This document shows, one piece after another, positions 61,467 through 64,000 of a stretch of DNA of 64,000 nucleotides (position 1 is its first letter; each line of letters starts with the position of its first letter). The DNA is from Pirellulales bacterium (GTDB lineage Bacteria; Planctomycetota; Planctomycetia; Pirellulales; PALSA-1355). The notes under the pieces were generated by a model. It was given only the letters and a program-made list of their open reading frames with translations, searched no databases and was not told the DNA's origin. The DNA lies in NCBI GenBank assembly GCA_963733035.1, contig CAVTBU010000008.1, forward strand, positions 256,001 to 320,000. The letters run 5' to 3'. The position numbers were made by a program, and so were the translations under genes.

Positions 61467-61569
61467 ACAGTTTGAAAAATCTATCCCAGGCCGACGCTTG
61501 CGCATTGCAGAACGCATGAGGAGGCCCGCAACCGCCTGATTCTTCGACAGATGCGGGTGTTTCGATTAG

Positions 61570-61611
61570 TGGACAGGGGCGGGATCGAACCGCCGACACA
61601 CGGATTTTCAG
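61570..61611 (-). tRNA. 3' half of tRNA-Phe(GAA), truncated at the anticodon loop; attachment-site remnant
   Basis: Minus strand CTGAAAATCCGTGTGTCGGCGGTTCGATCCCGCCCCTGTCCA has anticodon loop, T-arm and acceptor 3' strand; no D-arm or 5' acceptor strand upstream. Confidence 0.85.
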
Positions 61612-62259: not shown

Positions 62260-62682
62260 TCACTTCTCCGCGTCCATGTTGACGGCGGTGTAGAAACCCA
62301 TCGGCTCTCGTTCGGGCAATCGTTTGAGCGCAACACACGATAGGTTTATTTGGCTGATATGCTGAATCAACCGTCTCGGATTTCCGTCAACATCGAAGCC
62401 ATCGAAGATGATAAGCACCGGACTTCGGTAGCCGATGGTTTGGACGTACATATTTACGCCACTGCCAGACACGAAGGCGGCGATACCTACATCCTTGTCT
62501 GGTGGCAGACTCTTGTGAAACTCGTTGAAGGCAGCCGCAACTTCATCGCACACGCCAGCAGCGTCTAACTTGTACTTGGCTTCCGCGATTGCTGCATTGA
62601 CTTTGCCTTGAGCCAATAAACTGTTGTACGAGTCGCGGGCAATTGCATCGGTCATTGATTTGAGCCGGTCAAACGCACTCAT
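62260..62682 (-). CDS. DUF6173-like family protein
   Basis: IGYRSPVLIIFDG.D.DGNP..LIQHISQIN...MGF pattern; AAGGAA upstream. Confidence 0.7.
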   Translation of the reverse strand: MSAFDRLKSMTDAIARDSYNSLLAQGKVNAAIAEAKYKLDAAGVCDEVAAAFNEFHKSLPPDKDVGIAAFVSGSGVNMYVQTIGYRSPVLIIFDGFDVDGNPRRLIQHISQINLSCVALKRLPEREPMGFYTAVNMDAEK

Positions 62683-62911
62683 GTCCGATTCCTTCCCTTT
62701 CCTTAACCGCCAGACGGGCGTCCGGGCTGGGTCCGCAGTAGCCTTCCCTGGCAATCGTCCACACTGGGTTCACAAAGTCGCCTTCGCCATAGACGTGGAT
62801 GGCATCGACGTACTTCATGTTCTGCGCGAACAGTTGGGTAGCTTCCTGTTGGGCTTCCTCAAAAGTCGGCCACCAGCCGAGTTGGTTGTCGAACCAAATA
62901 GCGAACTTCAT
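62669..62911 (-). CDS. Hypothetical protein (80 aa)
   Basis: ATGA overlap with the upstream gene and overlap with the downstream gene. Confidence 0.6.
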   Translation of the reverse strand: MKFAIWFDNQLGWWPTFEEAQQEATQLFAQNMKYVDAIHVYGEGDFVNPVWTIAREGYCGPSPDARLAVKEREGIGHECV

Positions 62912-63126
62912 GGTTGTTGCCCTGCCCCGATGATGGTGGTCTTCACAAACTCGTGTTGGCAAGCAGGGTTGAGGCATTGGTGCCGGTAGGTCGTTGACGT
63001 GTGGACCTTCTCAGCCTCGTCTGCAAAGGCGGTTTCCATTCGGGTGATTTCCGACTGAGCCTTGCACTTGGGGCAGGGCACGTTGGTGATGTTCCCCGCC
63101 ACTGGATCGGTGATTCTGGTAGGCAT
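62908..63126 (-). CDS. Small zinc-ribbon protein
   Basis: CPKC...YRHQCLNPACQHEF, similar in pattern to Ogr/Delta-like zinc fingers. Confidence 0.65.
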   Translation of the reverse strand: MPTRITDPVAGNITNVPCPKCKAQSEITRMETAFADEAEKVHTSTTYRHQCLNPACQHEFVKTTIIGAGQQP

Positions 63127-63128
63127 TT

Positions 63129-63224
63129 TTATTTCTTTGGTGGGGCTTTCGGGGCGGGTGGCTTCTCTTGGGTCTTCGTAGGCTTCGGATTCGAGCCGCC
63201 TTTGACTTTCTTGGGATCGACCAC
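63129..63224 (-). CDS. Pro/Lys-rich micropeptide E: MVDPKKVKGGSNPKPTKTQEKPPAPKAPPKK
   Basis: AGGAGG RBS 8 nt before GTG; shared KPPAP motif. Confidence 0.7.
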   Translation of the reverse strand: MVDPKKVKGGSNPKPTKTQEKPPAPKAPPKK

Positions 63225-63236
63225 TAGGCGAACCTC

Positions 63237-63375
63237 CTATTTAGACTTCCGTGGTGGTGGTGCTGGCGGCGCTGGTGGGCGTGCTGGCGGTCGCGGTGGA
63301 GTGATTGGACGCTGTGAACTTCGGATAGGACAGCGGCCATTAAAAGCCGTTGTTGACAGGAATGTTGTCGGACAT
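63237..63375 (-). pseudogene. Pro-rich micropeptide D, interrupted by one extra T: MSDNIPVNNGF/NGRCPIRSSQRPITPPRPPARPPAPPAPPPRKSK
   Basis: GGAG RBS; length 139 nt = 3n+1; removing one T from TTTT restores the RPPAP tail. Confidence 0.55.
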
Positions 63376-63378
63376 AGT

Positions 63379-63579
63379 TCATTCTCCCGATTTCGGTGTG
63401 GCGGGCGGCTGTGCCGTGGTCGCGGTCTGAGCGACCGGAGCGGTGGCCGGGGCGGGTGGTTTAGCTAACGATACGGGCCTGCTTCCTGTCCGGCCAGCCT
63501 TTATCTGCACTTCACCGGGGGCAGGGCCGTTCAACCCTTCCATAATGTGTTCAACAGCGCGTAGTTCGTCGTCGGACAT
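63379..63579 (-). CDS. Pro-rich micropeptide C (66 aa), MSDDEL...EGLNG...AKPPAPATAP...PKSGE
   Basis: GGGAG RBS 6 nt before ATG; shared motifs. Confidence 0.7.
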   Translation of the reverse strand: MSDDELRAVEHIMEGLNGPAPGEVQIKAGRTGSRPVSLAKPPAPATAPVAQTATTAQPPATPKSGE

Positions 63580-63589
63580 TCGAGTCTCC

Positions 63590-63721
63590 CTACTTCGATT
63601 TTTTAGGTGGGGCCGCTGGCGCGGGCGGCTTGGCGGTCTTGGGTGACTTGGCTTGTACACCCTCTTGAAGTATGCGCCGTGTCTTCTGTCCTGTACGTGA
63701 GTAACGGTCTTTGTTTGGCAT
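63590..63721 (-). CDS. Pro/Lys-rich micropeptide B: MPNKDRYSRTGQKTRRILQEGVQAKSPKTAKPPAPAAPPKKSK
   Basis: GGAG RBS 6 nt before ATG; shared motifs. Confidence 0.7.
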   Translation of the reverse strand: MPNKDRYSRTGQKTRRILQEGVQAKSPKTAKPPAPAAPPKKSK

Positions 63722-63732
63722 TATCAACTCCG

Positions 63733-63882
63733 TTAGCTCGGATTCTTCGGCGGCTTGGGCGGGGCTGGCGGCGCTGGCGGCTTCGCTGCCTGCGGTCTGC
63801 CCTGCGCTCCACGCTGACCATCAGTTGCACAAGCGTCTCGCTGCCTGCGGTTTGGTGAAGGGGTTGGAACTTTGCTTCCCAT
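63733..63882 (-). CDS. Pro/Lys-rich micropeptide A: MGSKVPTPSPNRRQRDACATDGQRGAQGRPQAAKPPAPPAPPKPPKNPS
   Basis: GAAAGG upstream; shared motifs. Confidence 0.7.
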   Translation of the reverse strand: MGSKVPTPSPNRRQRDACATDGQRGAQGRPQAAKPPAPPAPPKPPKNPS

Positions 63883-63930
63883 GTTGGTTTGACCTTTCGG
63901 ACTAACTGGCGATTGCGTCTTGCCCAACCA

Positions 63931-64000
63931 TTATACCGGATTCCCGTTCGTGGCCTCGCGCTCGTACACGTATTTTGCAAACTCCACTCGCTCAACATCC
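63931..64000 (-). CDS. 3' end of a gene entering from outside the window (...DVERVEFAKYVYEREATNGNPV*)
   Basis: Open frame to the window edge, co-oriented with the peptide array. Confidence 0.45.
   Translation of the reverse strand, partial: DVERVEFAKYVYEREATNGNPV

Follow-up and report, generated by a model that had tools for sequence, protein, structure and literature searches.

The closest described counterpart of the locus analyzed here is a group of three small genes in Pseudomonas stutzeri, where SEP1 (36 residues), SEP5 (47 residues) and SEP2 (41 residues) are encoded head to tail directly behind the DUF6338 gene Pstu14405_RS12030 in a predicted operon (PMC10433244, Anal Chem 2023). According to the portions of that report drawn upon here, digest-free mass spectrometry of cell extracts, with membrane fractions outside the scope of the study, detected the three peptides with 85, 114 and 44 spectra, respectively, at 98-100% coverage and essentially full length and unmodified; the authors considered them not conserved beyond P. 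stutzeri and possibly the products of de novo genes, raised an antimicrobial role for the proline-rich SEPs, citing a review of proline-rich antimicrobial peptides, and left the function open (PMC10433244). Here we analyze five Pro/Lys-rich microprotein genes (pep1 to pep5) that follow a DUF6338 gene in an integrated element of a Pirellulales bacterium. The DNA read, hereafter the window, comprises 64,000 nucleotides (C8:256001-320000 of a 10-contig, 6.65-Mb genome), and a 20-kb stretch spanning its end (L001) was included, positions in which are given as window equivalents. DUF6338 and a family of such microproteins together form a module conserved in prophages and other mobile elements of at least two phyla, a finding that appears to be new, and the array in the window is, set against what the P. 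stutzeri report describes, an unusually large and diverged instance of a kind reported once (PMC10433244). For the explanation as a whole, comprising the peptide family, the two-gene module, the partner relationship and an accessory or conflict role, we estimate a rough probability of 0.55, with individual parts graded separately below.

The array and the gene upstream of it are laid out as follows.

63931 to 64000 in the window, gene extending to window-equivalent 64611 (L001 3931-4611), minus strand: DUF6338 gene, 226 residues, 3' end in the window
63882 (ATG) to 63733, minus strand: pep1, 49 residues; N-terminus MGSKVPTPSPNR, center RGAQG, tail AKPPAPPAPPKPPKNPS
63721 (ATG) to 63590, minus strand: pep2, 43 residues; tail AKPPAPAAPPKKSK; GGAG 7 nt ahead of the ATG
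63579 (ATG) to 63379, minus strand: pep3, 66 residues; central motifs GLNGPAP and IKAGRTG, tail AKPPAPATAP followed by an extension
63375 (ATG) to 63340, minus strand: N-terminal piece of pep4, 11 codons (MSDNIPVNNGF) with TAA at 63342-63340; GGGAG 8 nt ahead
63341 to 63237, minus strand: C-terminal piece of pep4 in the +1 frame, 34 codons (NGRCPIRSSQRPITPPRPPARPPAPPAPPPRKSK), stop at 63239-63237
63224 (GTG) to 63129, minus strand: pep5, 31 residues; center KGGSNPKP, tail EKPPAPKAPPKK; AGGAGG 8 nt ahead

A preceding sequence-only reading of the window had described five head-to-tail open reading frames (ORFs) with gaps of 3-12 nt, each behind a Shine-Dalgarno site of its own. The gaps stand (11, 10, 3 and 12 nt from pep1 to pep5, by the sequence and the ORF list), as do four intact copies of 49, 43, 66 and 31 residues, whereas copy 4 is broken and yields its proposed 45 residues only through a +1 shift. 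Shine-Dalgarno-type sites are found 7-8 nt before the starts of pep2 (GGAG), pep3 (GGGAG), pep4 (GGGAG) and pep5 (AGGAGG), whereas the GAAAGG ahead of pep1 is weak and lies 12 nt from its ATG; a promoter and terminator scan of the locus did no better than on shuffled sequence. Automated ORF calling had been said to fail all five copies; checked against the ORF list, pep1 to pep3 are indeed mis-started and pep4 is omitted, whereas pep5 is listed correctly.

All five copies carry the [KR]PPAP tail motif that had been reported, and four of the five end in a K/R-rich stretch, with a longer extension in its place in pep3. The start of pep1, MGSKVPTP, matches the motif M-[GAST]-[SAV]-K-x-P-x-P of first copies in the wider family described below (compare the database proteins P0004, P0011 and P0013), and the central motif reads GLNGP in pep3, GFNG across the break in pep4 and GGSNP in pep5, with a degenerate G-x-Q form in pep1 and pep2. 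Four of the five peptides are strongly basic, with net charges of +7 to +10 and isoelectric points (pI) of 10.3-12.0 (pep1 +7, pI 11.5; pep2 +10), and pep3 is acidic to neutral. None of the five carries a signal peptide and none matches a Pfam model, while structure prediction for pep1 returns zero secondary structure (predicted TM-score, pTM, 0.23) and a confidently predicted extended tail. Only pep3 is present as a called protein in a public collection (P0001), where P0010, encoded by an ORF of the related locus L205, shares its layout with two central motifs; the nearest look-alike of pep5 is the lone ORF behind DUF6338 in L187 (KKGGVNPRAP ... PPPPQKPKDK).

The likeness to the P. stutzeri peptides extends from composition to gene order. 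As far as described in that report, the SEPs are likewise basic (pI 10.4-11.2) and proline-rich, have a G-x-N-type center followed by P-P-A-P and an R-P ... PPPP-K-K end, and are encoded by small head-to-tail ORFs behind DUF6338, with gaps of 28 and 12 nt and one 4-nt overlap (PMC10433244). The window differs from that instance in having five copies, one of them broken, KPPAPxAPP tails in place of a PPPP(P) run, a different host phylum and a module enclosed in a delimited, tRNA-integrated element. Because the SEP sequences share the build of the window peptides, the kind is known from a single instance whose members are made as full-length, apparently unmodified peptides, and the earlier statement that this is not a described system was nearly right, with that one published instance, termed strain-specific, to be set against it (PMC10433244).

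These data bear directly on the proposal that the peptides are precursors processed near G-x-N/Q, as in ribosomally synthesized and post-translationally modified peptide (RiPP)-like systems. Such systems typically have short paralogous precursor genes in tandem, in which one part is conserved and another varies, and the layout of the array fits that description. The three SEPs, however, were detected unmodified at 98-100% coverage in the published data (PMC10433244), and no modifying enzyme, protease or transporter family recurs among 21 ORFs of the element, 124 ORFs of related loci and 109 ORFs of viral contigs. We therefore set the processing proposal aside as very improbable.

The break in copy 4 coincides with a T4 run (63345-63342, minus strand; GGC TTT TAA T). 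Skipping one T of the run gives a 45-residue pep4 with N-G-F-N-G across the break, and since this one-T deletion restores the family's central motif, the ancestral pep4 must have had a single uninterrupted frame. The tail matches the profile of the five peptides (A1) with an E-value of 3.6e-9, and its frame has no ATG, GTG or TTG start. The break may be a homopolymer error of the assembly, may be an inactivating mutation, or may be bridged by a low-level +1 slip at UUU_UAA. The programmed +1 frameshift site of prfB reads CUU UGA C, and pep4 resembles it in having a codon able to re-pair after a +1 slip (UUU U) directly ahead of a stop (UAA) and a +1 frame that holds the conserved rest of the protein; it differs in having no Shine-Dalgarno-like stimulator just upstream, with no GGAGG-like sequence in the 15 nt before the slippery UUU_UAA, and no shift in relatives, all of which are read in a single frame at that place. 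An assembly error or plain inactivating mutation explains the break as well as or better than a programmed shift; none of the public-run contigs that match the locus spans the T4 run.

The array is distinct within its own genome. A six-frame translation of the 6.65-Mb genome contains 178 instances of [KR]PPAP; five of them are packed into 620 nt on one strand at this locus, where by our own arithmetic about 0.008 would be expected. Searched against the genome, the A1 profile recovers only the five copies at E ≤ 9e-9, with the next matches at 0.47 and 4.5, and a comparable Pro/Lys tail was found at the end of no other ORF in the genome. Across 10 tail codons and 10 pairs of copies, identity amounts to 80, 88 and 35 of 100 at codon positions 1, 2 and 3, and where tail residues agree, the third codon position matches in 29 of 76 cases. 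This pattern of identity indicates that the copies separated long ago as DNA and have been kept alike as peptides; the array genes are, by this codon evidence, under selection for the peptide, as the sequence-only reading had argued from synonymous codon choice. Its description of the array as a diversified cassette of paralogous peptides likewise agrees with the separate starts and stops, the profile E-values and the codon pattern. Codon usage was also scored, with 2415 long ORFs of the genome as the training set; the score weakly favors the proposed frame in pep3 and pep5 and is tied for pep2.

The same region could in principle hold no genes at all, being either a decayed long proline-rich gene or a set of chance frames opposite a plus-strand Gly/Ala-rich gene. 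Copy 4 is broken, codon usage is atypical in pep1 and in the pep4 tail, and an antisense GGN-GCN (Gly/Ala) frame has the same wobble positions, such that the same codon pattern would also fit the plus strand, where a 155-residue ORF (63001-63468) lies opposite the tails of pep5 and pep4 and part of pep3. That plus-strand ORF, however, also overlaps the zinc-ribbon gene that follows pep5, the plus-strand frames facing tails 1 and 2 are 20 residues long or out of register, and every copy has its own stop and start, with a GGAG of its own in copies 2-5, at odds with the single frameshifted Pro-rich ORF that the sequence-only reading had named as its refutation. Many genomes have relatives of the same build behind DUF6338, three of which were detected as peptides in the published P. 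stutzeri data (PMC10433244). The conserved synteny with DUF6338 thus largely refutes a non-coding origin, which we consider hardly probable at all.

In public sequencing data, the runs listed include no RNA run containing the locus, and the metagenome runs contribute single identical 151-nt contigs at 62989-63139 and 63806-63956 (a salt-marsh run and a soil run from different studies), one 151-nt contig with 15 differences (90% identical) at 62706-62851 and low-complexity matches. The salt-marsh and soil contigs, thin as their coverage is, suggest that the same or a close element may occur elsewhere.

The upstream gene, whose stop lies 48 nt before pep1 on the same strand, is assigned to DUF6338 (PF19865) with an E-value of 4.7e-17 and 62.7 bits against a cut-off of 26.5. 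It was unrecognizable to the sequence-only reading because just its last 70 nt fall inside the window. The first DUF6338 homologs, identified at 36-39% identity in two genomes of the same class, are each trailed directly by one small ORF with a G-G-x-N center and a basic polyproline end. Of 401 genomes of the class, 22 encode a PF19865 protein, the window's own included; from the 21 other loci we removed one at a contig edge and two weak partial matches in large frames, and with the two earlier homologs the remaining 18 made 20 usable loci. We then applied a fixed rule, namely a same-strand ORF of 28-90 residues starting from -120 to +250 nt of the DUF6338 stop, with at least five prolines in the last 20 residues and at least one K or R in the last eight. 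Such an ORF is present at 13 of the 20 loci (12 of 14 in the close subfamily and one of six in the distant one) and in 16 of 18 IMG/VR contigs encoding DUF6338 relatives, and other ORF ends satisfy the same rule in 9 of 270, 11 of 210 and 31 of 825 cases (51 of 1305 in total). Among the remainder, a look-alike in L189 departs from the rule in size and offset alone, L188, L191 and L194 have looser Pro/Lys-rich ORFs, and the two exceptional viral contigs (L237 and L238) carry a shorter-tailed look-alike.

Copy number varies among these loci, with four copies in L199, three in L201 and L196, two in L198, L204, L205 and L224, and one elsewhere, making the window's five the largest array among the loci examined; at other loci the first peptide ORF often overlaps the 3' end of DUF6338. 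The homologous arrays, conserved neighbor and variable copy number that the sequence-only reading had looked to are thus all present, with one to four ORFs behind DUF6338 elsewhere, and among its options a cognate partner encoded upstream fits best, DUF6338 being syntenic with the peptides across phyla and in viral contigs, while physical binding of the two is what we infer. The loci contradict the strain-specific status that the P. stutzeri report, as far as drawn upon here, assigns to the SEPs (PMC10433244), and a conserved pairing of DUF6338 with such peptides across phyla or proviruses was not found in the literature searched. As to the DUF6338 proteins themselves, those of L203 and L207 (303 and 294 residues) are lengthened at the C-terminus by some 70-90 polar or acidic residues, and extended C-termini are also seen at loci with peptide genes (L196, 299 residues; L202, 276 residues; L199, 269 residues).

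We aligned 27 peptides (alignment A2), five from the window and 22 from related loci, leaving out both ORFs of L189, L196:1158-1259, L196:535-630 and L198:852-1010, and using an internal ATG for the ORFs of L186 and L202 and for one ORF each of L204 and L205. Three segments are shared: M-[GAST]-[SAV]-K-x-P-x-P at the start of first copies, G-[YFH]-N-G-P in the middle, which supports the central G-x-[NQ] as a family motif, and [KR]-P-x-[ST/P]-PPPP-K-K at the end. The N-terminal motif is found in seven of the 27 aligned peptides and four of 14 database representatives, typically in a first copy, and G[YFH][NQT]G in eight of the 27 and 13 of the 14; peptides from viral contigs have the tail variant RPPAPAAPP, as in the window. 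Against 1.84 billion representatives, the A2 profile retrieves 13 proteins of 47-60 residues at E ≤ 0.001, matched end to end, and in a word-indexed collection it retrieves four, of which both named ones are hypothetical, while 12 further members of the family match zero Pfam models. By these comparisons, the peptides make up a genuine family with few database entries and next to no annotation, and we regard the assignment of the window peptides to this family and operon type as highly probable.

Searches that started from the window peptides themselves had a narrower reach. The five-peptide profile gave three weak matches inside larger frames in 33 genomes of the family, found pep3 itself and nothing else among 5.8 billion proteins, and a peptide search of viral contigs gave 600 pattern matches, with zero confirmed. 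We discarded a KPPAPxAPPK DNA pattern, whose matches at 37 viral loci and at least 120 genome loci are Pro-rich linkers within large proteins, off-frame matches and a few C-terminal tails on unrelated, larger proteins, without arrays, as well as a KPPAPxAPPKK pattern in metagenome contigs, which gave 13 loci and no arrays. Separately, larger unrelated proteins with a K-P-P-A-P-x-A-P-P-K-K tail 0-4 residues from the stop occur in a Pirellulales metagenome-assembled genome (MAG), Limnoglobus roseus, a Verrucomicrobia MAG and two metagenome contigs (L086, L087, L101, and L179 and L180, respectively); the tail they share with the window could reflect a short linear motif that recurs, or no more than convergence.

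The tails raise the question of whether the ORFs act in cis, with polyproline or APP-rich ends pausing ribosomes in an EF-P-dependent manner, setting the flow to the next start and leaving the peptides as by-products. Proline runs stall ribosomes lacking EF-P, the relatives end in runs of 5-9 prolines a few codons ahead of the stop, and the starts are closely spaced, with gaps to the next one of 2-12 nt here and a first copy that elsewhere often overlaps the 3' end of DUF6338. The peptides cannot, however, be a leader of DUF6338, because they are encoded after it and not before it, and at most loci nothing conserved lies downstream. The window tails, moreover, have PPAPxAPP in place of PPPPPP, residues outside the proline run are conserved (MGSK.P.P, GYNGP and the start of the [KR]P tail), and the SEPs accumulate, with 44-114 spectra in the published data (PMC10433244). 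A mainly cis-acting function thus seems to us quite improbable.

We built an AlphaFold2 model of DUF6338 with 21 aligned homologs (A3). Its mean predicted local distance difference test (pLDDT) score is 84.4, with helices at residues 4-27, 35-66 and 75-108, a poorly defined linker and a C-terminal part (136-211) composed of a helix at 136-142 and six strands between 148 and 211. Foldseek gives 49 matches against the PDB at E ≤ 0.001, with Sm or LSm chains throughout the matches listed and TM-scores by target of 0.45-0.81 for the Sm/LSm chains among them, and VIA-align, which is independent of Foldseek, gives a Z of 9.3 and a root-mean-square deviation of 3.1 over 81 residues to 4c8q_D, 28 chains at Z ≥ 8, and Sm, LSm, Hfq or LSm-like proteins in 45 of the best 50 rows, aligned to model residues of about 131-217. 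The C-terminal domain is accordingly predicted to be an Sm/LSm-like small beta-barrel, sharing with Sm, LSm and Hfq proteins a helix followed by a bent five-strand barrel and differing from Sm proteins in sequence, with identities of just 9-22%. We know of no Sm protein fused to membrane helices in this manner. A likeness to MscS-type channels, which we presume to combine three helices with a beta domain, finds no MscS chain among the best 50 VIA-align rows.

For DUF6338 as a whole, the prediction is an inner-membrane protein that has its N-terminus outside and three to four membrane helices. The loop after helix 1 and the segment after helix 3 are Arg/Lys-rich and the loop between helices 2 and 3 is acidic, so by the positive-inside rule the barrel should face the cytoplasm. 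It carries a conserved Trp/Pro-rich loop, W-P-x-E-W-P-D, and a looser likeness connects it with SH3-type polyproline-binding barrels: P-x-x-P-x-[KR] is a motif class of polyproline ligands for such barrels, and four of the five window tails fit it by eye. Co-folding of DUF6338 residues 118-226 with pep1 gave a score of 0.02, which counts neither for nor against binding.

In the working model that we favor, pep1 to pep5 are protein-coding genes, one of them broken or dependent on a shift, and represent an enlarged and diverged array. Their products are basic, proline-rich and unstructured microproteins of 31-66 residues, belonging to a family with one to five head-to-tail copies directly behind DUF6338. 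The peptides would remain cytosolic and, given the missing signal sequence and the predicted orientation of the barrel, would share its cytoplasmic side, where they would be the soluble partners of this membrane-anchored domain; the barrel itself may assemble into a ring, like Sm proteins. The extended tail ([KR]P..PP..PP-KK) could dock together with the G-[YF]-N-G-P motif, possibly onto the conserved W-P-x-E-W-P-D loop, and the variable N-terminal parts and copy number might tune the module. Such direct binding of peptide to barrel is a tentative element of the model, somewhat more doubtful than not. The moron-like placement of the module in prophages suggests an accessory function in conflicts between phage and host or between phages, for example as a membrane switch for exclusion or abortive infection, although we hold this part, too, to be tentative.

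The charge of the peptides and the membrane helices of DUF6338 could also be read differently, with the peptides as the effectors themselves, i.e. cationic proline-rich molecules acting on ribosomes, chaperones or nucleic acids of a host or competitor in the manner of proline-rich antimicrobial peptides or histone-H1-like basic tails, and DUF6338 as their exporter, channel or immunity protein. The net charge of +7 to +10 and pI of 10.3-12.0 of four window peptides and their predicted lack of structure would suit such a role, tandem copies would increase the dose, and three to four membrane helices with a ring-forming type of fold would suit a channel. The proline-rich antimicrobial peptides apidaecin, oncocin and Bac7 are animal, secreted products with PRP-type motifs that target the ribosome or DnaK, and apidaecin is encoded as multiple tandem units. 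The window peptides resemble them in being short, cationic, proline-rich and unstructured, but have no signal peptide or PRP-type motifs of the kind known from ribosome-targeting peptides and are tied to the gene of a membrane protein; pep3, in addition, is acidic to neutral. The authors of the P. stutzeri study did raise an antimicrobial role, but the SEPs were found in cell extracts and membrane fractions were not analyzed, as far as the report is drawn upon here (PMC10433244). On these grounds we consider an effector function improbable, if less so than cis action or precursor processing, and retain the soluble-partner model.

Several observations weigh against the soluble-partner model and its conflict role. 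Seven of the 20 related-genome DUF6338 loci lack an ORF conforming to the rule, and two of these, L203 and L207 in the close subfamily, are entirely without one; many of the 18 viral loci have near-identical peptides, and so do not count as independent. The codon-usage score disfavors the proposed frame of pep1 (-0.23 versus 0.06) and that of the pep4 tail (-0.51 versus 0.11), which their atypical amino-acid make-up may explain. The cytoplasmic placement of the barrel has the positive-inside rule, applied by eye, as its sole basis; binding between peptides and DUF6338 is, as stated, inferred, and a fused DUF6338-peptide protein was not found among 8000 long candidates, which is weak evidence. 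With regard to the conflict role, PADLOC defense models (2023 library) give zero families at E ≤ 0.01 for 20 element proteins and the five peptides, and five of the 10 related-genome loci scanned for neighbors lie among ordinary housekeeping-type genes.

The other five of these 10 loci, drawn from the 20 usable ones, have mobile-element or defense-type neighbors: HerA with a radical SAM protein, AbiEii, a capsid protein with a D5 primase and HTH_17, and a DNA methylase (one locus each), and at a further locus an integrase with an S8 peptidase, an AAA ATPase and UmuCD-type proteins. In the viral contigs, of which 16 of 18 were scanned with 109 of 212 candidate ORFs, or roughly three per side, and two partial-match loci left out, the module is accompanied by lambda P and NinG/Q on either side, the CI repressor, N6/N4 or C5 DNA methylases, a RelA_SpoT protein, NA37, YqaJ recombinases and Mu-like or other capsid genes, and often lies opposite in direction to its neighbors and near contig ends. 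One plasmid record also carries the module, and RefSeq's partial gene table for it lists DUF6338 and omits the peptide gene. Across 21 element ORFs, 124 ORFs of the 10 related loci and 109 ORFs of the 16 viral loci, DUF6338 is the sole constant neighbor of the peptides, with no constant third gene. A tblastn search of DUF6338 against isolated phage genomes and a megablast search of the lambdoid-type module against E. coli genomes gave zero matches each. The module is thus a self-contained accessory cargo, carried by prophages and satellite-like primase elements, by at least one plasmid and in variable islands of the chromosome; it is distributed across at least two bacterial phyla and largely prophage-borne.

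In this respect it recalls prophage accessory membrane modules such as RexA-RexB of lambda or the Sie proteins, being a small self-contained unit of a membrane protein and a putative cytosolic partner at moron positions of temperate phages (the nin region, by the repressor, by methylases). It has zero sequence or family relation to them and matches no defense model. A further-reaching version of the soluble-partner model would make it an undescribed two-part mobile system in which a membrane-anchored Sm-like ring is gated or armed by cytosolic polyproline peptides and decides the outcome of infection through exclusion or abortive infection, with peptide copy number and N-terminal variety evolving in an arms race and the window array as the extreme case; in this full form we think it unlikely.

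The placement of the array inside a mobile element, proposed from the window alone, is confirmed by the boundaries of the element, which occupies 15,962 nt at a tRNA-Phe gene and is delimited by a 44-nt perfect direct repeat (D2, 100% identity). A tyrosine integrase (PF00589, E 1.6e-12) is encoded within it, and a tyrosine recombinase adjoining a tRNA gene, with a far repeat of the tRNA's 3' part, is the arrangement of an integrative element. The element also encodes a PriCT_2 and AAA_25 primase-helicase, an HNH-like protein, helix-turn-helix proteins and a phrog_2448 protein, and its integrase-distal end consists of DUF6338, the five peptides, a zinc-ribbon protein, an 80-residue protein and a DUF6173 protein. 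Two further features of this end lie in the window.

63126 to 62908, minus strand: zinc-ribbon gene, 72 residues, start 2 nt past the pep5 stop
61568 to 61611, no strand assigned: distal att repeat, 44 nt identical to the 3' part of tRNA-Phe at window-equivalent 77486-77529, spacing 15,918 nt

The zinc-ribbon protein matches Ogr_Delta with an E-value of 0.007, under the cut-off, and phrog_1305 with 0.0013; its gene belongs to the pep operon here and stands outside the conserved module, and as a query it gave only two weak matches in 400 other genomes of the phylum. Between it and the DUF6173 gene, at window positions 62672-62911 on the minus strand, lies the gene of an 80-residue Trp-rich protein (MKFAIWFDNQLGWWP...) without a family match. 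The 416-residue protein at L001 6457-7707 (window-equivalent 66457-67707, minus strand; phrog_2448, E 3.1e-40) finds no match by sequence in the PDB and, among viral contigs, only three distant relatives, with no arrays nearby; it may be a structural protein of the element. A G+C-rich tandem array at L001 15123-15314 (window-equivalent 75123-75314), located between the primase-helicase and HNH-like genes, has a period of 8 or 16 nt, a GCGGGCGGGTCTGCGG-like unit and about 14 registers, and could represent iterons or an origin. A second small element, at L215 9763-17035 (G302), carries the module beside a Phage_capsid_4 protein, a D5_N/DUF5906 primase and an HTH_17 protein, in a layout that resembles the window's primase element and phage satellites.

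Taken together, genes supposed to be strain-specific and possibly de novo become members of an old two-gene module, conserved at the level of motifs and nearly always missed by annotation. DUF6338 gains a first structural reading, as a predicted membrane-anchored Sm-like barrel, together with a candidate partner, and the A2 profile can be used to find the peptides, such that the microproteins and DUF6338 become a testable pair in tractable hosts, P. stutzeri and lambdoid prophages among them. If the role in phage conflict is true, polyproline microproteins would be a new kind of component for that field.

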